Below are positions 5,115 to 36,852 of a stretch of 64,000 nucleotides of DNA, in pieces (position 1 is the first letter of the stretch; every line of letters starts with the position of its first letter). The stretch lies in IMG/VR virus record IMGVR_UViG_3300027895_000001, positions 1 through 64,000 of that record, one strand, 5' to 3'. The stretch comes from a virus. Made by a program: the position numbers and the translations under genes. A model generated the notes under the pieces. It saw only the letters and a program-made list of their open reading frames with translations. It was not told where the DNA came from and searched no databases.

Positions 5115-5536
5115 ACACCTTTGCACTCATTACACAACTCATTAGGTAGGATTACGTCGGCTCCACAGGCATCACAACTACCGTGACCAACTCTACGATT
5201 CCACCGCTCTATAAGTTGTGGTCTCCCATCATCCTTTAATGAATACTGCAAATTGGTTGACGCTGCACACATCGGGTTAGTGCACTCGATAAAGTTAGCT
5301 CCATCGTCAGCATCCTGCAGTTCAGCGCTGGAACCACAAAACGGGCAAGGCTTAAGTTCATCCATAGTGTTCTTCTTCTTCGGCACAAAAGTATGAGCCT
5401 TGCTGAAAGGCAAATGTGATATTCCTGCGTGCTCGTCCGTTGCTTCAGGATACCCACACCTCTCACATACAATAGATTTTCCATCCTTGGATAACTGGCC
5501 CTCAGTACAATAAGGCCAAGACTTTTTCATGCTCAT
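5111..5536 (-). CDS. Lar-family restriction-alleviation-domain protein with extra zinc ribbons
   Basis: KPCPFCGSSAELQ...FIECTNPMCAAS...LIERWNRR matches the Lar family pattern (CPFCG...C..C...WNRR). Start chosen at MSMKK (GGAGG 5 nt upstream, ATGA overlap with the HNH stop). Confidence 0.6.
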   Translation of the reverse strand: MSMKKSWPYCTEGQLSKDGKSIVCERCGYPEATDEHAGISHLPFSKAHTFVPKKKNTMDELKPCPFCGSSAELQDADDGANFIECTNPMCAASTNLQYSLKDDGRPQLIERWNRRVGHGSCDACGADVILPNELCNECKGV

Positions 5537-6063: not shown

Positions 6064-8839
6064 TGATCTTAACCTCTTTCATCTCCGCCCAGTTCTTACC
6101 TGCGTTCAGTTCGACATCTATCCACAGGCCATCGGGAGCTATAGTCGGATGTACCAACACCTTACTAGGCTCAACAAGGACTGGGTAAACTTCCGCGACG
6201 TGTTGCTCCAACTCGTCCTCGCGAACAATAAATAACAAATTATCGTGAATATTATTACACAAGTTATATTTCGAGTCAAGTCCTTTATTGTGGAGCAATT
6301 TCATATGCTCTCGTATGTAGCCAAACGCAATGTTAGAGAGGTGATAGGAGATCGCTTCCTCCGCCTGATCCCCATGCGAGTAAGCAGCTTTCTTATAATC
6401 CCACCGGAAGACTTCATAGAACCTCCGCATGTGGCCGTATTCGGTGCGCTGATACTGCTGGTCATGCGCTAGTTGCTGCGCTCGCTTCTGCCACGTGAAT
6501 ATCTTGGGAAACACTTCCTCGTAATCGTCGAGGATGCTTTGCGCCTCCTTGATCGACTTAAAGAACTCCATGTAGCGTTCGAATAGGCCCTTGGCCTTGA
6601 GCCCGTTGCCGATCCCGAGCCCAGCATGTTTGATCTTGGAGTCGCGGATGTGTTTGTATTCCTCGTTCGACTTGAGCCATCGACAGCGCGCCTTGATCTC
6701 GTCGTCGGATTCGCGGACCAGATCCTGCGCCCGCCATAGCTTGAGAAAGTGGCCAGTCATGATGGAGTGCATGTCGATGCGCGCAAATCGGATATACGTC
6801 TCGTCCTCCGCGAGGAATCCGAGCGTTAGTACGTGGCACGACTTATAATCCCACTCCGCGAATAGGTAGCCGTTAGGCGCCTTAATCATACGGCGCGTGG
6901 CTCGGGCCAGCCGACCGTGCTTGGGGAAATTCTGTATGTTGGGATTGCGCGACGACAGTTGGCCGATGCCGGTGTCGAAGGTGAACGTAGTGTGGACGCA
7001 ACCGTCAGCGTGCGGGACGAACCCGTTGATATACGTCCCTCGCATCTTCCCCAGCTCGCGGTACTCGATCACGCGGAGGTAGAAGTCGTCGTCGGTGCGA
7101 TGCGCCAGTCTCACGAGTTCTTTCTTGGCCGTCGTGTCCTTGTCGTTGCCTTCGTCGTCTTGCTCGCGGGATTTGGGACGCTTGTGACCCTTAGCATCCA
7201 TGTATCGCTTGAGTTGGTCCGGCGAATTCGGATTGAAAGGCACGACACGACACCAGCGTGTAAGTCGCTCAGTGCATGGCTCGCCTGTCTCCCCGGAAAT
7301 GGCAGCAACTGAGAAAGATCGCTGCACCAATCCTGTAGTGTCTTTCGGCTTACGTATGTAACCGTAGTCATAGTTCCCTTTCTTCCCGCGCCGTGGCTCC
7401 AGTCCCAGCACTTCCTCCGGCACCCGGCGCTGCAACTCCGCGTCCAGCTCCTGTTGCGCCAAGTCGAACTCCCCGTCCAGCTTCAGCCGCTCGGCGTCGT
7501 CGACTGGGAGCCCGCGCCGCTCCATCGCCGCGAGGATCGGCCGCACCTGCTGCACCTGGCCCACGTACCCACCCACGCAGTCACCGCTGGCGTCGTAGGG
7601 GGAGTCGTAGATCCCGTCGCGCCGCAGCGCGTCGAGCAGGAACGTATACAGGCGCAGGGTCGCGTCCACGTCCACGCAGCCATAGAATTCGAGGTTGGTC
7701 GCCGCGAGGTGCTTCCACGGGAACGGGAACTGGACGAACTGCGCCGCGAACTGGAGGTGCGCGGGCAGGTCCGGCTGCCAGTGGTGGAACATCTGCAGGG
7801 TGTCGTGGACTACGCCGCGTGGTCGGAGGTCTAGTCCTTCTCGCTGGCCGCAGGCTTCTAGGACTTTGTTGTCGAAGAGCCACACATGATGTCCAACCTT
7901 CACATTGTTGCTGTGTAAGATTGACTCAGCGACCTCTCGATATCCTCCTTCCCAAGGGAAAGCGATACCTTCGCCTGTTCTAAGAGAGAACTGGATAAGC
8001 CGGATCCGAGTGTCGGTAAATCCGTCTCTAGCATCTTCATCGAGACTTGCAGATTCGTAAGTCTCGATATCGTAGCTGAAAGGGAGTCCGCTGTTGCCTT
8101 TAACTCGTAGCGAAAAAGATCGAGCCTCGTCAAGGCTAGGATGTAGCGAATATCTGAGCTGTCCATACATCTCACTCCTTTCAGGATCAATATTCCATAT
8201 CCACTCCCGGTCCCGTCCAGCAGCGACGTTGACCGCGCGCTGGAGGGTGCGGGCGAATACTCCCTGCAGGTGGGCCGCGCCACGGCGGATGAACGCGGGA
8301 TGGAATGTCGATACAGTCGGTATCTGATCCGGTCCCGGCAACACATACCCGCAGAGATGGCTCACTCCCCTAGCCTCTCCCGCCTCCCCCGTCAGCTCCC
8401 GCGTGGCCGTATCGCCAAGCGCCAGGATCGCCCGTGGCCGACGGTCGCGGATCGCGGCATCGAGGTTGGGCCGGCAGTGGGTGAGCGCCGACCACTCCCA
8501 CGGCGCGCCTGCGAGCCAGTTCTTGGCCGGGCGGCAGCGCAGGGTGTTCGTGATCGAGAATTGCTGGCGCGAGTAGCCCATCCGTTTGAAGGTGCGTTCG
8601 AGGACGGAGCCGCTGGGAGCGTAGGGGCGCAGGGGGAGTTGGTCGCGGGCCTCAAGCTCGCCGGATGCCTCTGCGACGATCATCACGCCCAGCGAGCCCG
8701 TGCCCTCGACGGCGGAGAAGTCGGTGCCCATAGAGTGACAGGGGCAGCCCTCGCAACTATTTGGTTTCTGGCGCACTGTCGTCCTCGATGAAGATCTCTG
8801 GGAAATCTCTACGAATGTGTGCCTCACCAAACGTGTCAA
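6032..8839 (-). CDS. family A DNA polymerase with N-terminal family-4 UDG-like domain and 3'-5' exonuclease region
   Basis: - UDG-like: CEGCPC, VMIVAEASGELE, FHPAFIRRG.
- Exo I-like: FSYDIETYES.
- Pol motifs: EWDYKSCHVLTLG (A-like), RDSKIKHAGLGIGNG (B-like), NNIHDNLLF (C-like).
- The start could lie downstream of 8839, since it overlaps ORF 8757-8963. Confidence 0.9.
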   Translation of the reverse strand: MTRLVRHTFVEISQRSSSRTTVRQKPNSCEGCPCHSMGTDFSAVEGTGSLGVMIVAEASGELEARDQLPLRPYAPSGSVLERTFKRMGYSRQQFSITNTLRCRPAKNWLAGAPWEWSALTHCRPNLDAAIRDRRPRAILALGDTATRELTGEAGEARGVSHLCGYVLPGPDQIPTVSTFHPAFIRRGAAHLQGVFARTLQRAVNVAAGRDREWIWNIDPERSEMYGQLRYSLHPSLDEARSFSLRVKGNSGLPFSYDIETYESASLDEDARDGFTDTRIRLIQFSLRTGEGIAFPWEGGYREVAESILHSNNVKVGHHVWLFDNKVLEACGQREGLDLRPRGVVHDTLQMFHHWQPDLPAHLQFAAQFVQFPFPWKHLAATNLEFYGCVDVDATLRLYTFLLDALRRDGIYDSPYDASGDCVGGYVGQVQQVRPILAAMERRGLPVDDAERLKLDGEFDLAQQELDAELQRRVPEEVLGLEPRRGKKGNYDYGYIRKPKDTTGLVQRSFSVAAISGETGEPCTERLTRWCRVVPFNPNSPDQLKRYMDAKGHKRPKSREQDDEGNDKDTTAKKELVRLAHRTDDDFYLRVIEYRELGKMRGTYINGFVPHADGCVHTTFTFDTGIGQLSSRNPNIQNFPKHGRLARATRRMIKAPNGYLFAEWDYKSCHVLTLGFLAEDETYIRFARIDMHSIMTGHFLKLWRAQDLVRESDDEIKARCRWLKSNEEYKHIRDSKIKHAGLGIGNGLKAKGLFERYMEFFKSIKEAQSILDDYEEVFPKIFTWQKRAQQLAHDQQYQRTEYGHMRRFYEVFRWDYKKAAYSHGDQAEEAISYHLSNIAFGYIREHMKLLHNKGLDSKYNLCNNIHDNLLFIVREDELEQHVAEVYPVLVEPSKVLVHPTIAPDGLWIDVELNAGKNWAEMKEVKINVPMVAVTNA

Positions 8840-27227: not shown

Positions 27228-27652
27228 CGCTGGAGGAACGTTTGTGGTCGAAGGTATCTCCCGAACCAATGTCAGGCTGTTGGTTGTGGACCGGAGCTTT
27301 ATCAAGTGGATATGCAAGTCTAGGGTCGGGAGCTTACGCACATCGGGTATATTACGAACTCACGCGAGGAAAGATACCAGACGGTTTGGAATTGGATCAT
27401 AAATGTCGAGTACCTTGTTGTGTTAATCCCGATCACCTTGAACCAGTAACTCACCGTGAAAATATGCGGCGAGGTAATTTTGAGAAAGTTCGTCAACGAT
27501 TCGTCAAGTTTCGTGCCATTGGCAAATGCAAGCGTGGTCATGTTTTTGCAGAAGTAGGCAGGATGAACGCCAAGGGCAGGCTGGGGATGTGTCGAGTTTG
27601 TTACCTAATAAGTCGAGAGAAAAGCCGTGTATCACGCAGACAAAATCGCTAG
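27224..27652 (+). CDS. HNH homing endonuclease (terminase-associated position)
   Basis: LELDHKCRVPCCVNPDHLEPVTHRENMRR core plus a KCKRGH...CRVC zinc ribbon. ATGA overlap with the upstream stop. AT-rich. Confidence 0.85.
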   Translation: MTLEERLWSKVSPEPMSGCWLWTGALSSGYASLGSGAYAHRVYYELTRGKIPDGLELDHKCRVPCCVNPDHLEPVTHRENMRRGNFEKVRQRFVKFRAIGKCKRGHVFAEVGRMNAKGRLGMCRVCYLISREKSRVSRRQNR

Positions 27653-29870
27653 TCGGATAAAGAATGAGATCGAGAATGTGTTCGGCTTTACTCCAACTCG
27701 ACACACCATAGAAGAAGTGTCCGCATTTGATGAATGGCTCAAGGCTGAGGGCAAATATATTTACGACGCTAACGGCCAAGCACAATCCTGCCAAAACCTA
27801 GAGCCTTGGGAACGCCAGTGGATGCTGAACGAACGTTGCATGGTTATGGCAGATGCGATGTATGGCATCACACGCTACGGTTGGCTAATTGACGAAGAGG
27901 GAGTTATCAAGCGCTTTTGGCCTCGCGTGGCACAGTCAATCCTCTTCGGAATCATTGGCGATCTAGAGTCGCAGGATGTAGCGATAGAGATACAGGCGTT
28001 GAAGGCTCGTCAATTAGGGATCACAAGTATTATCGAGCTTCTCATCATGCTACGCATTGTCTTCAGTTATGGCGTGAACGCTGTAATTGCGAGCGCAGAC
28101 CAACAGAAGTCTCTGATGATGGCCAAGAAGCTATTCATGGCTTACGATATGCTTCCTTGCTGGCTCCGTCCACACTCTACTGCACGTGTCGAGAGTGATC
28201 GAGGCAAACTAGAGTTTGGCTACCTCAATTCGGGCGTATCTATTCAACACGGAAATCAAATGTCAGGTATTGCTCGTGGCTCTACGCCTACTATTTATCA
28301 TCTTTCGGAGGCCGCTAGTTTTTCTAACGCTAGTGAGCAGATTGAGGCGGCTTTGTTCAAAGCAGTACATCCATCACCATCAATATTTGGAATCTTAGAG
28401 TCCACTGGTGAGGGCGATACAGGCTGGTGGGCGGATACTTGGAGATTCTCCAAGGCTAACTATGCGTCGCGGCAGTCACGGTTGTTCCCGCTATTCCTTC
28501 CTTGGTTCGTTGGTCTCGACATTTACCCCAAACCTGCGTGGCTGCGTGCTCATCCAGTACCGCCATCGTTTTATGAAAACCGTCTACCTGATACCAGAGA
28601 GCATGTTACCAAGGCTGAGTTGTATGTGCGTACACACGACATGATTCGTAGGCATCTTTGTGTAGAACATAAAGAGTTGAGCAAGGAGGGCAAGAGTAAC
28701 TGGTGGTTAGATGGCACCATGCCGATCGAACAGCAGTGGTGGTGGGAGGTGGGACACGAAGAGGCGAAAGCTAAATCCCTAGAAGGTACGTGGTACCAAG
28801 AAACCGCAGGCGACGACGTAGAGGCCCTCCAACGCTCGTCCGAGTCCGTGTTCGGCTACGACGTGATGTCCCGCGTCGACCGCGACCGCACCCGCGACTA
28901 CTCCGTCTACGGCCTTAGCGGCCAGTCCATCGAGGACGACTACGAGCCCGACCCCGACGACATCGACTACCAGAAGCCGCGCATCCCTGTCCTCTACCGC
29001 AATCCTCGCGGCCCGGTCTACAACTGGGAGCTGATCCCTCTCCACTGGGACCACGCTCGCGTCGAGTCGTGGAAGAAGACGAACCCGGACGCGTTCTGGG
29101 ACTACGGCCAAGGCCGCCTGTTCGTGTGGCACCCACCCCGGCCCGGCGTCCTCTACTCCATCGGCATCGACTCCGGCGAGGGCCACGGGCAGGACTCGAC
29201 CGTCATCAACGTCTGCGAACTCGCGCCCCGCGCCGGGATGCCAGACATCCAGGCCGCCGAGTTCCGCTCCTGCTACGTGTCTCACGTCCAAGTCTACGCG
29301 TTCGTGATGGCTATCGCGGCGTGGTATGCGTCCGCCATGACCGTCGAGAACCTGCGCTGGAACCAGCCTCTCGTCGCGCCGGAGGTGGTCGCGTCCGTCG
29401 GCGACATCTGCCTCGTCCAGATGCGCCAGATGGGCTACCACAACTTCTTCCGCTTCCAGCGCTACGACAACGCCAAGTCCACCAAGTCGAACAAACTCGG
29501 CTGGTACACATTCTCATGGTCGCGCCCCATCCTGATCGGCTCGTTCATCGACACCATCGAGCAAGGCTGGTATCAACTCAACTCCCCGTGGACGCTGCAC
29601 GAGTGCGAGCACTTCGAATCCCACTCGACCGCATCCGGCAAGGTTAAGCAGGAGCACGAGGACGGCGAGCACGACGACGGGATCTTCGCCTCCGCCATAT
29701 CCATCGAGATCGTGCGCGGGCGGCAGTCGAAGACGGAGCGTTCGAAGAAGCGGTTCATGGGCGACGCGGAAGCCTCCCGCCTGCCCGCGCTCGATCTCAG
29801 CCCATGCGCCACGACCTTTCCGTCACGTGGGATCGACAACCTCATCGTGAATAACTTGGACGATCTCTAA
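27627..29870 (+). CDS. terL: terminase large subunit
   Basis: KARQLGITS resembles the lambda gpA-type deviant Walker A (KSARVGYS), and IYHLSEAA is Walker B-like. 747 aa, located between the HNH and the portal. GTG start inside the HNH 3' end. The N-terminal ~390 codons are AT-rich and the rest is GC-rich. Confidence 0.85.
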   Translation: MYHADKIASRIKNEIENVFGFTPTRHTIEEVSAFDEWLKAEGKYIYDANGQAQSCQNLEPWERQWMLNERCMVMADAMYGITRYGWLIDEEGVIKRFWPRVAQSILFGIIGDLESQDVAIEIQALKARQLGITSIIELLIMLRIVFSYGVNAVIASADQQKSLMMAKKLFMAYDMLPCWLRPHSTARVESDRGKLEFGYLNSGVSIQHGNQMSGIARGSTPTIYHLSEAASFSNASEQIEAALFKAVHPSPSIFGILESTGEGDTGWWADTWRFSKANYASRQSRLFPLFLPWFVGLDIYPKPAWLRAHPVPPSFYENRLPDTREHVTKAELYVRTHDMIRRHLCVEHKELSKEGKSNWWLDGTMPIEQQWWWEVGHEEAKAKSLEGTWYQETAGDDVEALQRSSESVFGYDVMSRVDRDRTRDYSVYGLSGQSIEDDYEPDPDDIDYQKPRIPVLYRNPRGPVYNWELIPLHWDHARVESWKKTNPDAFWDYGQGRLFVWHPPRPGVLYSIGIDSGEGHGQDSTVINVCELAPRAGMPDIQAAEFRSCYVSHVQVYAFVMAIAAWYASAMTVENLRWNQPLVAPEVVASVGDICLVQMRQMGYHNFFRFQRYDNAKSTKSNKLGWYTFSWSRPILIGSFIDTIEQGWYQLNSPWTLHECEHFESHSTASGKVKQEHEDGEHDDGIFASAISIEIVRGRQSKTERSKKRFMGDAEASRLPALDLSPCATTFPSRGIDNLIVNNLDDL

Positions 29871-30325: not shown

Positions 30326-30504
30326 ACGGAGATGTAGCGATGGGGATGTTCTTCGCGATGGAAGAAGCTATTCGTGCTCATCCACACGATGGGCTCGTTT
30401 ACGAGGATTGCTATGTGCGTGTGGTGCGTGAAAACGGAACGATAGTTATGATCGGACAGCCCTTGCGATCACCCTTCATGTATACGACAGCGGAGTCATG
30501 CTGA
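30322..30504 (+). CDS. hypothetical small protein (GTG start)
   Basis: GTGA overlap with the upstream stop; AT-rich; 60 aa. Confidence 0.4.
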   Translation: MNGDVAMGMFFAMEEAIRAHPHDGLVYEDCYVRVVRENGTIVMIGQPLRSPFMYTTAESC

Positions 30505-32534
30505 TGGGCTACGACGACCAGCGCCGCGACGGCAAGCTCTGGGAGTGGCAGTGTCCTCCCGCCGCCACCCCTGTCGAGCGCCGCCTCGGCTGGATCAACG
30601 ACAACACGGAGCAAGGAATCTCGTGGCTCAAGTCTCAGCGCGGCCACACCGACTGGCGCAAGGCCCTCGACGTGATCTCCGGCACCGTCGGCCCGCAGCC
30701 TGTCCGCTATCGCTCCACGCTCAACACGAACCACCTGAAGCGCAACATCCGTGAGGTCACCGGCGCGCTGGCCAAGCTCCGCCCTCTGTGGGGCTACTCC
30801 TCCGACAACCCCGCCTTCGCGCCCAACGCCCAACTCTTCAACCTCTACGTGCGCGCCTGGTATCTCGAAACCTTCGCCGACGTGAAAATTAAAGAGGCCC
30901 TCCAGTACGCCGCTGCGACCTGCACCGGCTGGATACGCCCGGTCTACTCGCGGGACTTCGGCGGCCAGGGCTCCGGCGCCGTCCGCCTCCTGTCCTACGG
31001 CGCGCCTTGCATCCTGCCAACGCAGCTCCCTCCCTCGGGGGACTTCCAGCAGGCCTACGCGATGACCATCCTCGACGAGATGCCGGTGTACATGGCGCAC
31101 GGGATGTTCCACGACTTTCAGGACCAACTCCGCCCGACGACCTCCCTCTACTGGTACTCGAACGAGATCCGCAAGGCCGCGCAGGGCAACCTGTGGCAGC
31201 GTATGTTCTCGTTCGGCAAGTCCACTGGCGGGACGCCCGGCGTCGGCGAGTTCATGGTGCCAATTCGCTACACCTACATCATCGATCTCACGCACAACAC
31301 GACCCAGCGGGACATCCCGATGGGCGAGTCCGGCACGTCGTGGGCGTATACGGTCAAGCCGGGCGAACTCCTCTACCCTTACCGCCGACTCCTCATCTCC
31401 TCCGAGGCCTGCGTCATGTACGACGGTCCCTCTTTCGACTGGCACGGGCGCTTCCCCGCGATCCCGTTCTCGCTCGACAAGTGGCCGTGGGAGCCTCTGG
31501 GCCTGTCGATGGTGCGCGACGGGTATGACATCCAGCAGTCGATGACCGAGATCGAGCGTGGGACGATGGACAAAGAACGCGCCAAGCTCGACCCGGCACT
31601 TGGCTACGACATCAACTCCGTTACCAAGAAGGAAGCGGCACAGTTCGACCCCATGCAGCCACGCGCGCGTGTGGGCTACGACGGCGCACAGGCGACGAAG
31701 CCGTTCGAGCCTCCCGTCGACCCTCGCATCTACGAGACCACCGACACCACGCTCAAGTTCTACGACCTCCTGAAGAACGCGATGGACGAGCAGCAAGGGA
31801 TCAAAGACGTGATGGCGCTCGCGAAAGCGCGCATGGCGGGCGACGACCTCGAAAAGCTACTCGAAGCTAACGGCCCGATCATTGAGGACATGTCCCGTGC
31901 GATGGAGCCGCCGATGCGCGAGATGGCGGACCAGATTAAGTTCGTCGTCCTGCAGTACGTCCCTCCAGCACGCATCATGCAGATCGTAGGCGAGGACGCG
32001 ATGACGCTCGAAGCGTTCGATTACAAGCCGGAGACGATGGTCCCTTCTCACCTGCCCGGCGAGGATCCCGGCACCGACGAGAGTAATCCGAAGCCGTCGA
32101 AGCATCCGCAGGGAGAGCGCGCGCGCATCTTCGCCTCCAACCTGCGCTTCATCATCACGCCACGCTCTCTGCACGAACTCACGCAGATGTCGATGCGCCT
32201 CGGCCTGATCCAACTCAAGAAGGCGGGAGTGCAGATCGACTCGCAGACCATCGCCGATGCGTGGTCGGTGCCCAACTACGGCACCATCGAAGGCTCAACG
32301 GTGCAAGAGAAGTTCCAGACGGAGCAGCGCAACAATCTCATCTTCGCGGCGCAGATGAAGGAGCTGGGAATGTCGCTCACCGAGGGCGGCCAAATGAACG
32401 CCGCTGGCGCACAGGCGGGCGGCAAGCAGCAGGAGGGACGGCCACCATCCGGCCAGCAGGCGCCGCAACTTGTGCAGAAGCCCGACGGCCGCTCTACGAT
32501 CACCGAGAGCGAGGGAGGGGGAAGAGTCGTATGA
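30498..32534 (+). CDS. portal protein (by size and position)
   Basis: 678 aa, directly downstream of terL and upstream of the scaffold/capsid genes. No specific motif claimed. Confidence 0.7.
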   Translation: MLMGYDDQRRDGKLWEWQCPPAATPVERRLGWINDNTEQGISWLKSQRGHTDWRKALDVISGTVGPQPVRYRSTLNTNHLKRNIREVTGALAKLRPLWGYSSDNPAFAPNAQLFNLYVRAWYLETFADVKIKEALQYAAATCTGWIRPVYSRDFGGQGSGAVRLLSYGAPCILPTQLPPSGDFQQAYAMTILDEMPVYMAHGMFHDFQDQLRPTTSLYWYSNEIRKAAQGNLWQRMFSFGKSTGGTPGVGEFMVPIRYTYIIDLTHNTTQRDIPMGESGTSWAYTVKPGELLYPYRRLLISSEACVMYDGPSFDWHGRFPAIPFSLDKWPWEPLGLSMVRDGYDIQQSMTEIERGTMDKERAKLDPALGYDINSVTKKEAAQFDPMQPRARVGYDGAQATKPFEPPVDPRIYETTDTTLKFYDLLKNAMDEQQGIKDVMALAKARMAGDDLEKLLEANGPIIEDMSRAMEPPMREMADQIKFVVLQYVPPARIMQIVGEDAMTLEAFDYKPETMVPSHLPGEDPGTDESNPKPSKHPQGERARIFASNLRFIITPRSLHELTQMSMRLGLIQLKKAGVQIDSQTIADAWSVPNYGTIEGSTVQEKFQTEQRNNLIFAAQMKELGMSLTEGGQMNAAGAQAGGKQQEGRPPSGQQAPQLVQKPDGRSTITESEGGGRVV

Positions 32535-32764
32535 GTACAGCATCTTCACAACCGCAATACATCCCGCTACGCGTCGACAATACACACAAACTTGTACGTA
32601 CACGGATGTTCTTCCGCGACCGCCGTGACCTCTGTCAATTCCTCGCCGATATCGTGTGCCTGATTGAAGTCGAGCACACCACCGGACGCCTCTATCTCGA
32701 CTTCTCCGAGGGCCATTTCAACTCCGCACAGCTTGACGAATCCGCCGTCATCGAACCCTCGTAA
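32531..32764 (+). CDS. hypothetical protein
   Basis: ATG 32531 overlaps the portal stop (ATGA). 77 aa. Confidence 0.5.
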   Translation: MSTASSQPQYIPLRVDNTHKLVRTRMFFRDRRDLCQFLADIVCLIEVEHTTGRLYLDFSEGHFNSAQLDESAVIEPS

Positions 32765-32775
32765 CGAAATAGTCC

Positions 32776-32805
32776 TTGACATTGTTCTCTCTTCGTGCGT
32801 TTAAT
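32776..32805 (+). promoter_or_regulatory. sigma70-like promoter TTGACA-18-TTTAAT
   Basis: TTGACA 32776-32781 and TTTAAT 32800-32805, in an AT-rich intergenic stretch. Confidence 0.5.
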
Positions 32806-32866
32806 GTGGCTGGGATTCTTTGCTGGGCCTTGGCGAGTCACGGTACTCTCTGAGGCCACCAGAAAG

Positions 32867-32904
32867 GCTCGAAGCGCAAATCACGCTTCGGGCTTTTGTC
32901 GTTT
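32867..32904 (+). terminator. intrinsic terminator-like hairpin plus T-tract
   Basis: GCTCGAAGCG CAAATCA CGCTTCGGGC (10-bp stem with one U-G pair), followed by TTTTGTCGTTT. Confidence 0.6.
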
Positions 32905-32941
32905 ATGGCGGAATTCGAATCGCACAGAAGGGAGGTCACAC

Positions 32942-33004
32942 ATGTTGAGCTTTGGTCCTGTCGCCAATCGGCGTAAGAAAGGCAAGAAAGGCCACAAGAA
33001 ATAA
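32942..33004 (+). CDS. possible 20-aa highly basic peptide
   Basis: AAGGGAGG lies 6 nt before the ATG. Reads MLSFGPVANRRKKGKKGHKK. Very short, so uncertain. Confidence 0.3.
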   Translation: MLSFGPVANRRKKGKKGHKK

Positions 33005-33132
33005 CCGCCTCCTCACCCGGTGACGATACGCTTCGAGCGTGTCTCCGCATGAGGATCAACCGAGGTCAGGGGCGGGCGACCGTACCCACCCCTTCTACTA
33101 TCCCACTACCACACGACGAGCGAGGTCCGACG

Positions 33133-33300
33133 ATGGCATACGGCAAGAAACACGGTGGCGGAGCAGGCCGCGCCAAGCTGATGGGCACCAAGATCGGCAA
33201 CCACAAAGGCGGCGGAGGCTTCAAGCTCCACTCCGACATGAAAGAATCACACGCCAAGGGCCACTCTAAGGCTCCGAAGATGGCGCGGAAGGCGGTCTAG
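33133..33300 (+). CDS. small Gly/Lys/His-rich basic protein (55 aa)
   Basis: GAGG lies 7 nt before the ATG. Reads MAYGKKHGGGAGRAKLMGTKIGNHKGGGGFKLHSDMKESHAKGHSKAPKMARKAV. Confidence 0.5.
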   Translation: MAYGKKHGGGAGRAKLMGTKIGNHKGGGGFKLHSDMKESHAKGHSKAPKMARKAV

Positions 33301-33305
33301 CCTTA

Positions 33306-33599
33306 ATGGCGACCGCACCGATGGCGACTGTGCCGCCTCCTCCAGGAGGCCAGATGCCCGATCCGCCCAAGAATGGCGCGGACGCATCTCCGGCACCGCC
33401 ACAGCCCTCGCCGCAACTGGAATCCGGGTCACGATTGGTGATCCAGACGGTACAGGCGCTACGCAAGCTGGGACAGGACTTCCCGGCGGCGCAGCCCGCG
33501 ATCACGAAGATCAACGATCTGTTGCGCGAAGTCCAGATGAAGGTCATGGCCGGATCGAAGCCGACCGAGCCAGCAGCACCGCCGGCACCGTCGGCGTAG
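33306..33599 (+). CDS. hypothetical protein (Pro-rich ends, helical centre)
   Basis: 97-aa track ORF. Confidence 0.55.
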   Translation: MATAPMATVPPPPGGQMPDPPKNGADASPAPPQPSPQLESGSRLVIQTVQALRKLGQDFPAAQPAITKINDLLREVQMKVMAGSKPTEPAAPPAPSA

Positions 33600-33608
33600 G
33601 AGGCAACA

Positions 33609-33716
33609 ATGTCACACAAGCGCGGCAAGCATTCCATGGTTCACGAGAAACAGGGACCGTTCCGCAAAAAGGTGGAATCGTCCTCGAAGAAGAACCGCAA
33701 GGGATCGAAGAAGTAA
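33609..33716 (+). CDS. possible 35-aa highly basic peptide
   Basis: AGGAGG lies 6 nt before the ATG. Reads MSHKRGKHSMVHEKQGPFRKKVESSSKKNRKGSKK. Not in the track. Confidence 0.4.
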   Translation: MSHKRGKHSMVHEKQGPFRKKVESSSKKNRKGSKK

Positions 33717-33731
33717 CGGAGGGATATCCCG

Positions 33732-34187
33732 ATGGCACCGACACTGCAATCTTACATTAACGCTACCGCTGGCCCGAACGCGGCTGACCTCTCGCCGCTC
33801 GTCACCAACGACACCTACCGCAAGGCTGTGGACCAGGAGCTGGCCGTGCGCGAAGCTGCTACCACAGCCGCGACCGCTGCCGCCGCACGCGAGGCCGACC
33901 TGTTCTCCGGCGTCCAGCCGTTCGCGTCCGCGATGGGAGCGATCCGCACGATCGCCAAACGCTTCCCCGAGACCTCGAAGCACATGGACGACGCGGCCAA
34001 GGCGGTTCAGGCTGCGATGGGCGTGGTCGCCTACAACCCGCAACCTCTGCCACAGCCGACGCCAGCAACGCCGCTGCCGTCCGCTGATTCCCGCGTCCAT
34101 GTGGCCGAGAGGCCGATTCCCGCTCCCGGCGAGCCGATCGTCGACGCCACCGGAGCGCAGCCTACCCTGAACGCACCGAAGCCGTAA
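33732..34187 (+). CDS. hypothetical head-module protein
   Basis: GGAGGG lies 8 nt before the ATG. 151 aa, Ala/Pro-rich. Confidence 0.55.
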   Translation: MAPTLQSYINATAGPNAADLSPLVTNDTYRKAVDQELAVREAATTAATAAAAREADLFSGVQPFASAMGAIRTIAKRFPETSKHMDDAAKAVQAAMGVVAYNPQPLPQPTPATPLPSADSRVHVAERPIPAPGEPIVDATGAQPTLNAPKP

Positions 34188-34199
34188 CGGAGGATCATC

Positions 34200-35033
34200 A
34201 TGGCCCAGTCATATGCCGAATTTCTAGCTGAGAATGGTGCGACACCAGACGAGATTAAGGTGCTGGATATGCCCGCCGCGCGCAAGGCGTTCGACAAGCA
34301 GCAGGCTCTCGTGGCCGCCGCGTCTGAGGAGCGCCAGAAGGCCGCCGACCTGATCCGCAAGAATCAGGAGTGGGCGACACAGGTCGAGACGCAGAACCAG
34401 ACTTACCTGAAGGAGCGCGACTCGGCGCTGGTCAAATCCGCTGCCGACGCGGCCCGCCTGACCAAGATGCAGGAACTCGGCCTGATCGAAGTCGCCGAGC
34501 GCATGGAGCCAGGCTCTACCACGCCGAAGCCCAACGAGACTCCCGCGTTCGACGCCTCCAAATACGTCGACCGTGACACCCTGATGCAGGTGGCCGAGCG
34601 TGAGGGCGACGCCATCGCTACCGCGCAGGACATCGCGTGGGAGCATGCCCAACTCTTCGGCAACGACCCCACCAAGCGCCTCAACTTCCGTGACCTCCGC
34701 AAGGAGGCCGTGGCGCGCAAGGTTCCCGTCGAGTCCCTGTGGATGGAACGCTATGGCGTCCAAGCCGCCCGCGACAAGCGCGCCGCCGACGACCGTGCGG
34801 CTCACGAGAAGAAGATCGCCGACGAGGCCATCACGCGCTACAAGTCCGAGCATCCCGAAACCAATCCCCTGATGGCGGTGCCGACGATCTCCCGCACGCC
34901 GTTCACGGGCAAGATTCCTTCCGCCACTGGCAGCGATATCCGCCAGCCGTGGCTGAAGTCCGACGCCGAGCGTGAGAACGCCCGCGTCAGTAAAGTTCTG
35001 CCGAAGTTAGAGAGTCTGGGCGCAGTCAACTAA
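34200..35033 (+). CDS. candidate scaffolding protein
   Basis: 277 aa, charged and helical (coiled-coil-like), with GGAGG RBS, upstream of the capsid gene. Confidence 0.55.
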   Translation: MAQSYAEFLAENGATPDEIKVLDMPAARKAFDKQQALVAAASEERQKAADLIRKNQEWATQVETQNQTYLKERDSALVKSAADAARLTKMQELGLIEVAERMEPGSTTPKPNETPAFDASKYVDRDTLMQVAEREGDAIATAQDIAWEHAQLFGNDPTKRLNFRDLRKEAVARKVPVESLWMERYGVQAARDKRAADDRAAHEKKIADEAITRYKSEHPETNPLMAVPTISRTPFTGKIPSATGSDIRQPWLKSDAERENARVSKVLPKLESLGAVN

Positions 35034-35581
35034 TGCGAAAGAACGAACAACGCGATTGGAAACTACCCGCTTTTGGAGAATTCTGTCCATCGCCTATTGA
35101 TTGGGCCAGAATGGCCGCTTATATCGACGGCGAAGGTAGCGTTCTTATCAACACACAGAAGCGTGGCAATGCTAGGGCTGTGGGGTTCTATCTCCGCGTT
35201 ACTGTAGCTAACACAGATGTTCGTTTGCCTGCTTGGTTGAAGGAAACCTTCGGCGGGACATATAACTTGGCTGATACTGAGGCTTATTACGCCAAGCGTA
35301 ACTGGAAGCCCGCCTATCATTGGGGAACCAGTGCACATAGGGCTGCATGGATACTTTATAACTGTTTGCCTTACTTCATTATGAAGCGAGAACAAGCAGA
35401 ACTAGGTATCACCCTTCAGGAGAATTTAAGTAGGTATCGTTTTCGAGGCAAGGGAGCAGGTCAAGTCCCTTCTCAAATCTGTGAAGAACGACGAGAGTTG
35501 AAGCGACGTTTGTTGGTGATGAAAGCGCGTGGCAGAATTCTAGAACCCGCACAAGAGAAACGAATTCAGGAGGTCTCCTAA
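35033..35581 (+). CDS. LAGLIDADG homing endonuclease (free-standing)
   Basis: MAAYIDGEGS motif. TAATG junction with the scaffold gene. AT-rich. Confidence 0.85.
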   Translation: MRKNEQRDWKLPAFGEFCPSPIDWARMAAYIDGEGSVLINTQKRGNARAVGFYLRVTVANTDVRLPAWLKETFGGTYNLADTEAYYAKRNWKPAYHWGTSAHRAAWILYNCLPYFIMKREQAELGITLQENLSRYRFRGKGAGQVPSQICEERRELKRRLLVMKARGRILEPAQEKRIQEVS

Positions 35582-35595
35582 GGGAGATTTAAGCT

Positions 35596-36852
35596 ATGAG
35601 ACTATTTTCTCGCATTGCCGACTTTGAAGGCTCAAGGTACGAACGCCCTGCGGTATCGGCTACCCTCTTGTATTCGGCGCAAGTTACTGTTTGTATTGCA
35701 CTTACCGTTGATCCGGCCTTCGACCAGCTGAGCGCAACAACTCTTGCAGACCTTAGAGAGGACGTAGTTTACGATAACTTTTTTGTGGACAGCACAACTC
35801 TCCGCAAACTGAGGTTGTCAGGCGCCCTCGATGAGTACGCCGGCGGCACCATTATGCAGACGCCGTTCCAGTTCGCCCGCGTCAACGGCGGCGCCATCGC
35901 CCCCGGCTCAGACATCACGGTGCTGCAGAAGCAGATCATCGCTGCGACCGGATTCGTGCCCAAAGAGTACGTCGAGCAGATCCCGGTCAACCTGTGGCAG
36001 GTAGGCGTTATCAACGCTGGCCCCGCCGCCAAGGTGAAGATCATCGACGCCTACATGACCAACGCGGTCCAGGCAGCCAACACCGACCTCGGCATCGACA
36101 TCTTCCGCCACGGCCAAGCCTCTGGCACCACGATCCTCCAGAACCGCACTATCTTCATCAACGGAATCTCCGAAGCGCTGAACGACGGCATCAACAACTC
36201 GTGGGACGGCAATGTCTTCACGACCTACGGCGGCCAGACGCGCAACGGCGTCGTCGGCAACACCATGAACTCGGTCCCGATCTGGGTCGGCACCTCAACC
36301 GGCGCGACTGGCCAGATCACCTACAAGCCGCTCGTCGAAGCCTACCTCAACTGCGTCCAAGAGCCGGACCTCGGTGTGTGCAACAAGGCCCTCTACGCCT
36401 ACCTCCTCGAACGCCTAGAGCCGAAGCAGCGCTACGCCGAGGAGCAGGACGTGAACATGGGCATGGTGGGCATCCGCGTGATGAACGCGCTCATCATGGT
36501 CGACAAGCTCTGTCCGTCGACGAAATACGGCACGCTGCTCCCCGCTGGGCTGTCCCAGACGACCGCAGTGAAGCCAACCACGTTCACCTCGGCCACTCTC
36601 TCGGCGACACAGAACGCGATCTCGAACCTCCCGTCCGCGGTAACCATCAACCCCGGCGAGCCATTCTTCTGGCTCCGCACCAAGGGCTGGAAGGTACGTC
36701 CCACTACGGACCCGGAGTACAACTTCAACTTCACGCCGTGGGTGCGCTCGCAGACGAACCCGGATAACGTCGTGGGCTTCTTCAAAGTGGGCATCAACAT
36801 TTATTGCGTGTCACCGCGCGACAACGCGCAGGTATACGGAGCGGGATACTAA
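35596..36852 (+). CDS. major capsid protein (by position, size, expression signals)
   Basis: 418 aa with AAGGGAG RBS, downstream of the scaffold candidate. The capsid operon ends with the terminator at 37956. The first ~80 codons are AT-richer. Confidence 0.65.
   Translation: MRLFSRIADFEGSRYERPAVSATLLYSAQVTVCIALTVDPAFDQLSATTLADLREDVVYDNFFVDSTTLRKLRLSGALDEYAGGTIMQTPFQFARVNGGAIAPGSDITVLQKQIIAATGFVPKEYVEQIPVNLWQVGVINAGPAAKVKIIDAYMTNAVQAANTDLGIDIFRHGQASGTTILQNRTIFINGISEALNDGINNSWDGNVFTTYGGQTRNGVVGNTMNSVPIWVGTSTGATGQITYKPLVEAYLNCVQEPDLGVCNKALYAYLLERLEPKQRYAEEQDVNMGMVGIRVMNALIMVDKLCPSTKYGTLLPAGLSQTTAVKPTTFTSATLSATQNAISNLPSAVTINPGEPFFWLRTKGWKVRPTTDPEYNFNFTPWVRSQTNPDNVVGFFKVGINIYCVSPRDNAQVYGAGY

Follow-up and report, generated by a model that had tools for sequence, protein, structure and literature searches.

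Three conserved lysine-rich mini-genes and a newly found three-way-junction RNA in the head operon of a soil short-tailed phage

What do three very small, strongly basic open reading frames do among the head genes of a soil (Acidobacteriota-type) short-tailed phage? The question arises from a stretch of 64,000 nt (the window; positions 1 to 64,000 of IMG/VR record IMGVR_UViG_3300027895_000001), for which the original prediction, made from the sequence, placed three extremely basic ORFs with strong ribosome-binding sites between the portal and scaffold genes and suggested that they could encode packaged polycations or internal head proteins injected with the DNA. The positions, lengths and translations given there were exact: ORF1 (20 aa, 32942..33004), ORF2 (55 aa, 33133..33300) and ORF3 (35 aa, 33609..33716), all on the plus strand, have net charges (K+R-D-E) of +8, +11 and +11, respectively. 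All three are flanked by the portal gene (30498-32534) and a gene (34200..35033, plus strand) just before the capsid gene region that codes for a 277-aa scaffold-like protein, whose function is suggested by its position and conservation. The portal gene and the major capsid gene (35596-36852) were assigned by tblastn to the annotated genes of Tunturi_1/2 and by PHROG 9953. Directly 3' of ORF2 lies a gene for a 97-aa Pro-rich protein (33306..33599, plus strand), whose N-terminal part is predicted to be disordered and for which AlphaFold2 gave a helical hairpin (helices 36-58 and 60-83, pLDDT about 85); all relatives keep the order of ORF2 and this gene, even those with only 27% portal identity. 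A 151-aa protein encoded 3' of ORF3 (33732..34187, plus strand) looks by eye like a paralogue of the 97-aa protein, with which it has a ..FPE.. helix-turn motif in common. A family search with the scaffold-like protein gave no match, the capsid and portal proteins had no sequence relatives in the PDB, and a protein atlas returned only unnamed clusters, below 0.9. No prophage or host relatives were found by portal in genome contigs, and no DNA-level match was found in a phage collection.

The three mini-genes stand out by composition and by their translation signals. Their Lys fractions range from 0.20 to 0.30, and among 759 candidates (ORFs that start with ATG and code for 15-80 aa, taken from either strand of the full window) a Lys fraction of at least 0.18 was found only in ORF1-3 and their nested starts; the combination of Lys-richness, a net charge of at least +8 and a Shine-Dalgarno (SD) sequence occurred in 0 ORFs in 20 block shuffles of the window. 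Both strong ribosome-binding sites that had been predicted are present: the SD of ORF1, AAGGGAGG (32928-32935), ends 6 nt before the ATG and has the strongest anti-SD pairing of the module (-12.3 kcal/mol), and that of ORF3, AGGAGG (33598-33603), pairs with -10.2 kcal/mol, while the value for ORF2 (-8.5 kcal/mol) equals that of the capsid gene. Homologues of ORF1 and ORF2 are present in about 30 related IMG/VR contigs with 38-87% portal identity, whereas ORF3 is conserved in the closest group only (L001, L008-L011). Frame-specific purifying selection was detected on all three (pN/pS 0.11-0.40), with values of 0.12-0.16 for close pairs of ORF1 (>1 in other frames), 0.11-0.40 for ORF2 and 0.22-0.33 for ORF3 (at least 0.9 in other frames); binomial p-values for frame-0 selection ranged from about 0.1 for the weakest ORF1 pair to 3e-12 for the best. 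Pfam and PHROG searches were empty for ORF1, ORF2 and ORF3 even at E<=10, in line with the statement that they belong to no described phage family; a ribosomal-protein-like or other known family was rejected on the same grounds. ORF1-3 are thus confirmed as real genes and as compositional outliers beyond chance. Of the original proposal of polycation genes, the part that stands is that these are genuine, conserved and selected genes outside described families, while the packaged role remains tentative.

ORF1 consists of a short N-terminal motif, FGPVAN, followed by a polybasic tail. Its homologues in at least 25 related loci are 14-28 aa long, each with a conserved GAAAGGAG-type SD, and the start codon, SD and stop are kept in every relative, all length variants being intact from start to stop. 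The tails extend 7 to 19 residues past the VAN motif, and K, R, H and G are freely interchangeable within them, with acidic residues nearly absent. A frameshift or read-through fusion of ORF1 and ORF2 was rejected, as only 7 of 17 loci have an ORF2 frame that stays open back through the spacer, and the frames of the two ORFs relative to each other differ. ORF2 carries an N-terminal MAYG, a central GFKLHSDM and a basic C-terminal helix, and an alignment of its homologues showed M1, Y3, G4, G18, L32, D35, M36, A47 and K49 to be invariant; the non-basic residues among these imply a specific partner. AlphaFold2 predicted ORF2 to be disordered (pLDDT 58) apart from one short helix at 47-54. A search of 5.8 billion proteins found 33 homologues of ORF2, and one of 1.84 billion representatives found 16 clusters, all of them small; the database relatives (41-72 aa) are all annotated as 'hypothetical', and no fused 'Rosetta stone' form was present among longer proteins or the 1.84 billion representatives. 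The similarity between ORF3 and ORF1 is weak (z 2.7-4.8; hhalign probability 29%). Other lineages have a long ORF2, and the idea that ORF3 is one half of it that split off was rejected, since the likeness is limited to composition.

Beyond the range of sequence similarity, the equivalent slot still contains small basic ORFs in L005, L031 and L033 and in Tunturi_2, where it holds gp5 (43 aa) and an unannotated 22-aa Lys-rich ORF at 5167-5235 of PP885685, so that charge, not sequence, is retained. Each lineage has 2-4 small basic genes, with turnover. In two distant relatives (L034 and L037) the slot contains no small basic ORF, and the function of the mini-genes is therefore dispensable or replaceable there. 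The clade consists of soil podophages, and its only cultured relatives are Tunturi_1/2 (PP887698, PP885685), Tunturiibacter phages of podovirus type with 63-kb genomes, whose portal and capsid proteins are 31% and 30% identical, respectively, to those of the window phage. Their gene order matches (portal, tiny Lys-rich ORF, small basic gp5, Pro-rich gp6, gp7, capsid), but their mini-proteins cannot be aligned to ORF1 or ORF2.

The region upstream and downstream of ORF1 is densely packed with conserved elements. A promoter-like site (32776..32805, plus strand) consists of TTGACA, an 18-nt spacer and TTTAAT; a scan for consensus promoters did not flag it because its -10 element is non-canonical, and 13 relatives have the -35 hexamer TTGACA at a distance of 140-190 nt on the 5' side of ORF1. 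Just 5' of the ORF1 ribosome-binding site, a terminator scan identified an intrinsic terminator, T1 (32863..32907, plus strand), with a 14-bp stem followed by a T-run; the GGCTC...GGGCC stem and T-run occupy the equivalent place in 13 relatives and also in L052. Downstream of ORF1, RNAalifold and a covariance model (R1) defined a three-way-junction RNA (33005..33075, plus strand) composed of the helices P1 (33005-33013 with 33068-33075) and P2 (33015-33021 with 33059-33066) and the hairpins P3 (33025-33043) and P4 (33044-33055), with near-invariant junction strands AAAC and UCAA. The model matched once per locus at 30 loci (27-84 bits), and each member folded singly adopted the same shape; 83.5% of pairs were formed, compared with 35-51% when the structure was slid, and the covariation was matched in 0 of 500 shuffles. 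The P1 G-rich 3' strand can also pair with a downstream C-rich tract to form an alternative hairpin B (33068..33093, plus strand), which uses the same strand and so excludes P1. Hairpin B forms in 25 of 25 members (dG -9 to -20 kcal/mol), and the 5' C-tract, the G-tract and the 3' C-tract all covary together (e.g. in L052, L061 and L022). The ORF1 stop precedes P1 by 0-4 nt at all examined loci that carry the RNA. This three-way-junction RNA with its competing hairpin is newly found here and has no previous description; a search of Rfam over 32400-34000 gave no match at E<=1. About 120 pattern matches to the element in bacterial genomes correspond to the chance expectation, and none of the 80 bacterial matches listed was confirmed by the covariance model, with one marginal hit at 25.9 bits. 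The RNA is absent from the Tunturi phages. It is a candidate for a new, clade-specific cis-regulatory class for phage late genes. A conserved spacer motif was considered as a repeated phage promoter and dismissed, as it is present in a single copy in the window and once per relative.

The reading we favour, if tentatively, is that ORF1-3 are disordered polycationic micro-proteins that are made together with the head proteins and bind DNA in or at the capsid, and that translation of ORF1 in addition gates the RNA switch. A head-associated polycation role is consistent with the fixed position in the head operon, the capsid-level translation signals, the predicted disorder and the retention of charge. 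According to this proposal, ORF1-3 would be translated in amounts comparable to the capsid protein and would dock to a head component through short conserved motifs, which is FGPVAN in the case of ORF1; ORF2 would use MAYG, its basic C-terminal helix and the Leu/Asp/Met motif in its centre. Possible partners are the interior of the capsid, the scaffold and the Pro-rich protein with the helical hairpin encoded 3' of ORF2. The Lys/Arg/His-rich parts would then bind DNA phosphates inside the head or at its entrance as built-in counter-ions. The mini-proteins may be packaged in virions, and they may exit with the DNA at infection. In its second role, in cis, translation of ORF1 would gate the RNA switch with which the head operon begins: the ORF1 stop is 0-4 nt from the 5' strand of P1 and therefore a terminating ribosome must melt P1, whereupon the freed G-rich strand would form hairpin B. 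One relative, L030, has ORF1 without the RNA, and ORF3 has no such RNA downstream, which argues for a peptide function beyond the switch.

Several points speak against this polycation reading, among them that L034 and L037 have no small basic ORF in the slot. Tailed-phage DNA enters through the portal as naked duplex, and with DNA entry in this manner the polycations would need to be in the procapsid beforehand. For such loading, the head module showed no recognisable targeting signal or prohead protease, protease families being absent among the 10 head-module ORFs searched. Moreover, the dense leader (T1, ORF1 and the RNA switch) suits a regulatory ORF at least equally well. By arithmetic for the 64,580-bp genome with its 129,160 phosphates, the three proteins at the copy number of the capsid protein (about 415, assuming T=7) would neutralise only about 10% of these. 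The prevailing view is that tailed phages rely mainly on small cations and polyamines to offset the charge of their tightly packed DNA; the T4 internal proteins are the textbook exception.

Comparison with known systems gave partial likenesses. The T4 internal proteins IPI, IPII and IPIII, together with the small internal peptides, are small, basic and Lys-rich, are present at about 1000 copies in the capsid, contact DNA phosphates through their lysines and are ejected with the DNA (PMC3012670). ORF1-3 are likewise basic, Lys-rich and located among head genes, and the proposed principle is the same; however, the T4 proteins have 8-20 kDa and are partly folded, whereas ORF1-3 have 20-55 aa and are predicted to be disordered, and the N-terminal capsid-targeting sequence of the T4 proteins and its removal by a prohead protease have no recognisable counterpart in ORF1-3. 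In fact, no leader is common to the three (ORF2 starts with MAYG, ORF1 with a variable short head), and the Pfam and PHROG searches revealed no sequence similarity to the T4 proteins. Protein J of the Microviridae (phiX174, G4 and alpha3), a precedent for so small a DNA-binding protein, is an internal, highly basic protein of 26-38 aa that binds the inner surface of the coat and the genome (PMC12328618). It resembles ORF1 and ORF3 in size and in its two-part design of an anchor and a polybasic part, but belongs to tail-less ssDNA phages, unlike the tailed phage of the window. In protein J the basic part is N-terminal and the hydrophobic anchor C-terminal, and the polarity of ORF1 is the opposite, with a semi-hydrophobic motif at the N-terminus and the basic tail at the C-terminus; nor did the Pfam and PHROG searches at E<=10 place ORF1, ORF2 or ORF3 in the J family. 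The adenovirus core peptides, to which the original prediction had pointed, are mu, VII and V; these polycationic peptides condense dsDNA in an icosahedral capsid, and in its mature form mu has roughly the length of ORF1. They differ from ORF1-3 in being Arg-rich proteins of a eukaryotic virus whose precursors are cut by a viral protease, and adenovirus DNA is assembled with proteins, not pumped through a portal. In the literature on small basic packaged proteins of tailed phages, nothing was found beyond T4.

The main rival, which we consider possible but clearly less probable, is that ORF1 is chiefly a regulatory upstream ORF whose translation or peptide selects between the three-way junction and hairpin B. 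The basic peptide could bind the adjacent RNA like an arginine-rich peptide on nut-type RNA, or the position or speed of the ribosome on the polybasic tail could be decisive, and the fold chosen would determine read-through of transcription or the fate of the mRNA for the head operon. In that case ORF2 and ORF3 would be either accessory regulators that bind nucleic acids or unrelated. The invariable proximity of the ORF1 stop to P1 fits this view, as do the maintenance by covariation of two mutually exclusive helices, the conserved promoter and T1 directly upstream, the strongest SD of the module and a length of 14-28 aa, with which the peptide would still be within the ribosome exit tunnel at termination. 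The trp and his attenuators, lambda N-nut and HK022 put likewise place a short ORF or a basic peptide beside an RNA with two exclusive folds, in a promoter-proximal leader that holds a terminator and controls a long late operon, and the ORF1 stop adjoins a strand of two exclusive helices sharing a G-tract as in an attenuator. However, ORF1 has no run of codons for a single regulatory amino acid, the RNA, a three-way junction whose junction strands are invariant, is unlike boxB or put, and ORF1 is Lys- and not Arg-dominated, unlike N-nut-type peptides. The purifying selection acts on the peptide itself, while the K/R/H/G swaps and the variable tail length (7-19 residues) oppose both a single hungry-codon sensor and an arrest peptide of fixed geometry. 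No sign of peptide-RNA co-variation is seen, given that the RNA junctions are near-invariant and the N-terminal part of ORF1 is variable. Further points against a mainly regulatory ORF1 are L030, with ORF1 and no RNA; the polybasic ORF2 and ORF3, which exist without such an RNA; hairpin B, which is followed by 1-4 U in the next 8 nt and lacks a canonical U-run; and the spacing of 0-4 nt, which may reflect mere genome compaction. Translational coupling by SD sequestration was rejected, a result that also weighs against this rival: the ORF2 ribosome-binding site is equally accessible in both folds (mean unpaired probability from SD to AUG 0.54 in the three-way junction vs 0.53 in hairpin B, p=0.37, 22 loci). 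A combined proposal, that the cassette of promoter, T1, polybasic mini-ORF, RNA/hairpin and ORF2 is a new control device for late operons in which the peptide or its ribosome sets the RNA fold, with the ORF1/ORF3 family and ORF2 also serving as DNA counter-ions in the capsid, appears doubtful. Such a device would amount to N-nut or leader-peptide attenuation in miniature and in self-contained form.

It is similarly doubtful that the mini-proteins help head assembly inside the cell as unpackaged cofactors, either by chaperoning or neutralising acidic or Pro-rich head proteins (the scaffold, the portal, the 97-aa and the 151-aa protein) or by concentrating DNA at the portal. The fixed gene order, with ORF2 beside the Pro-rich protein and ORF3 beside its apparent paralogue, the invariant non-basic residues of ORF2, which point to a protein partner, and the failure to find an encapsidation targeting signal would all agree with cofactors. 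However, the neighbouring proteins are only mildly acidic (net charge -3 to +1), so that charge complementarity is weak, and in computational terms cofactors are indistinguishable from packaged proteins. Less probable again are late host-directed effectors; their targets would be the host nucleoid, ribosomes, RNA or polyphosphate, or else, like T4 IPI, they would be ejected and shield the incoming DNA from defence nucleases. Composition and disorder are compatible with such a role, and the T4 internal proteins are diverse anti-restriction cargo (PMC3012670), but ORF1-3 lack similarity to ribosomal, HU-type or known anti-defence families and lie within the structural operon, not among early or moron genes. 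Finally, that the ORFs are not genes and their Lys-richness is a by-product of purine-rich RNA signals (SD-like or unstructured tracts) is very improbable: the AAA/AAG/GGN codons are purine-rich, as is the K/E-rich mini-ORF of the most distant lineages, but the excess of synonymous changes is specific to the reading frame, every relative has kept start codon, SD and stop, the homologues stay intact despite length changes, the tails nearly lack acidic residues although GAA/GAG would preserve the purine content, and ORF2 has invariant non-basic residues.

Compared with the original prediction, the analysis adds two features next to ORF1, a conserved RNA switch directly after it and a conserved promoter-proximal terminator before it, and these open the regulatory reading of ORF1. 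Under the polycation reading, a conserved set of 15-65-aa polycations in a head operon would suggest that protein counter-ions or cargo are commoner than annotated. Mini-genes of this kind are easily missed: two of the three are smaller than the usual gene-calling cut-offs, and the 22-aa equivalent in Tunturi_2 has no annotation. Being cultured, Tunturi 1/2 make the protein question directly testable; their host is Tunturiibacter psychrotolerans.

The window covers 64,000 of the 64,580 bases of the IMG/VR virus record, which carries direct terminal repeats and is estimated to be complete. Its head module, all on the + strand, comprises the large terminase gene (27627–29870) followed by a 149-aa ORF, the portal gene (30498–32534) followed by a 77-aa ORF, the region of the three mini-ORFs, a scaffold-like gene (34200–35033, 277 aa; putatively the scaffold), a homing-endonuclease-type gene (35033–35581, PHROG 5046) and the major capsid gene (35596–36852). 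The mini-ORFs, likewise on the + strand, all lie within 775 bp: ORF1 (32942–33004, 20 aa), ORF2 (33133–33300, 55 aa) and ORF3 (33609–33716, 35 aa), with positions, translations and ribosome-binding sites exactly as given in the original prediction of three tiny basic ORFs. Both strands of the window together contain 759 small ORF candidates with an ATG start, of which only these three and their nested starts had a lysine fraction of at least 0.18; spurious ORFs in 60% G+C DNA are rich in arginine, not lysine, and 20 shuffles yielded no ORF that was Lys-rich, preceded by a Shine-Dalgarno (SD) site and strongly cationic. SD pairing within the module was strongest for ORF1 and second strongest for ORF3, while that of ORF2 equalled the capsid gene.

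A portal-based search of IMG/VR yielded 36 related loci (portal identity 27–87%). The sole cultured relatives are the Tunturiibacter (Acidobacteriota) podophages Tunturi_1 and Tunturi_2 (PMC11924767), whose annotated portal and capsid proteins share 31% and 30% identity, respectively, with those of the window. Conservation of the mini-ORFs in related phages held for the ORF1 and ORF2 families, found in virtually every relative with a portal identity of 38% or more, but not for ORF3, which was confined to the closest group. ORF1 homologues (14–28 aa) have a conserved GAAAGGAG-type SD and often a FGPVAN or VAN motif, followed by a K/R/H/G tail almost free of acidic residues. Homologues of ORF2 (33–67 aa) start with MAYG and contain a central G-[FL]-K-L-x-x-D-M motif and a basic C-terminus, with Tyr3, Gly4, Leu32, Asp35 and Met36 invariant; AlphaFold2 predicted disorder save for a short C-terminal helix (pLDDT 58). 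Codon-level constraint was evident in all three ORFs as a frame-specific synonymous excess: only in the annotated frame did synonymous substitutions predominate between close pairs, with pN/pS of 0.12–0.16 for ORF1, 0.11–0.40 for ORF2 and 0.22–0.33 for ORF3 versus at least 0.9 in both alternative frames (binomial p from about 0.1 for the weakest ORF1 pair to 3e-12). As judged from sequence, ORF1–ORF3 are polycationic, have strong SD sites inside the head operon and are all real, selected protein-coding genes that form a novel set of families. That they belong to no described family had been suspected, and neither Pfam nor PHROGs returned a match to any of them even at E ≤ 10. A search of 5.8 billion proteins retrieved 33 small 'hypothetical' homologues of ORF2, and with a profile 16 clusters were obtained from 1.84 billion representatives, each of 41–72 aa, with no fused forms; the protein atlas offered no lead, and the literature searched contained no description of arrays of tiny Lys-rich ORFs in phage head modules.

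The more distant loci L005, L031, L033 and Tunturi_2 have small basic ORFs in the equivalent slot that can no longer be aligned, and no small basic ORF was found at this slot in L034 and L037. Each lineage has two to four small basic mini-genes. Lineage-specific extra small basic ORFs of 19–49 aa occupy the same slot (L022 4629–4724, L004 8375–8524, L026 5543–5650 and L030 3275–3334), which indicates that mini-genes are gained and lost rapidly. The position of ORF1 is taken in Tunturi_2 (L038, PP885685) by an unannotated 22-aa Lys/Glu-rich ORF (5167–5235), and the basic 43-aa gp5 follows it directly; what GenBank annotates in that vicinity is an antisense gp4 instead.

The ORF1–ORF2 spacer (115–140 nt) shows strong nucleotide conservation, and RNAalifold and single-sequence folds concurred on a three-way junction (33005–33075 in the window), consisting of P1 (CCGYCCC with GGGRCGG), P2 (ACCCGG with CCG(A)GGU), the variable hairpin P3, the short hairpin P4 and the near-invariant junction strands AAAC and UCAA. 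A covariance model, whose E-values are rough by design, gave a single hit in each of 30 loci (27–84 bits) and one in the window; in its alignment 83.5% of cells were paired, compared with 35–51% in slid controls, thirteen pairs had changed on both sides, and the covariation score was reached by 0 of 500 shuffles. Rfam contained no match, and pattern-based sampling of bacterial genomes gave no confirmed copy. In all loci examined, 0–4 nt separate the ORF1 stop from the 5' strand of P1, which follows it. The G-rich 3' strand of P1 can alternatively pair with a downstream C-rich tract to form hairpin B (33068–33093; −9 to −20 kcal/mol across members), which excludes P1. Covariation links all three tracts, two C-rich and one G-rich: L052, L061 and L022 each have the same variant in all of them, so both folds are under selection. 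These comparative data identify a candidate RNA switch, previously undescribed, that starts at the ORF1 stop. Only 1–4 U occur in the 8 nt 3' of hairpin B, and accessibility of the ORF2 ribosome-binding site did not differ between the folds. Conservation of the RNA with its competing hairpin (33005–33093), accompanied by covariation, extends over about 30 contigs of related phages.

Regarding function, we tentatively favour the mini-proteins being head-associated polycations, which would bind DNA inside or at the capsid, because charge is kept where sequence is lost, each genome has several interchangeable copies, tail residues K/R/H/G interchange while acidic ones are excluded, and ORF2 has invariant docking-type residues; all copy-number arithmetic for these proteins is likewise inferred. 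The nearest working analogues are the T4 internal proteins (PMC3012670) and Microviridae protein J (PMC12328618), of which ORF1–ORF3 are not members. In the main, less likely alternative, ORF1 would chiefly serve as a regulatory upstream ORF or encode an RNA-binding peptide for the switch, which the stop-to-P1 geometry and a leader rich in terminators favour; what speaks against this as its sole role is selection on the peptide sequence, the varying length and composition of the tail, the absence of peptide–RNA co-variation and an ORF1 homologue without the RNA in L030. The latter, together with the distance of ORF3 from any RNA element, argues that the peptides act in trans, and thereby also favours the head-associated reading. 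DNA binding at the head and regulation are compatible, and the best statement joins both.

Three elements upstream of ORF1 (32776–32907) are conserved in 13 relatives: a promoter element (TTGACA), a leader (about 100 nt) and an intrinsic terminator of canonical form. A putative promoter-proximal terminator thus precedes the head operon, an arrangement reminiscent of lambda pR'-tR'. The leader also has a conserved GAGATTC motif. The ORF2-type gene always lies directly 5' of a gene for a Pro-rich protein of about 95–125 aa, whose conserved part is a helical hairpin; the 97-aa protein of the window (33306–33599) was modelled by AlphaFold2 as a disordered N-terminus and a two-helix hairpin. It shares a helix-FPE-helix motif with the 151-aa protein encoded at 33732–34187; the two look paralogous, and ORF2 and ORF3 with these partners may represent a duplicated unit of a basic mini-gene and a hairpin protein gene. 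The homing-endonuclease-type gene between the scaffold-like and capsid genes is missing from L001. Compared with the L001 homologue, the window capsid ORF carries 36 additional N-terminal residues, and a new 5' end or start for the capsid gene may thus have come with the insertion. In L001 an HNH-type ORF (8029–8532) is inserted directly after the portal gene, and its last residues are the same as the end of the window's portal protein, as though a duplicate of the 3' end of the portal gene travelled with this mobile gene.
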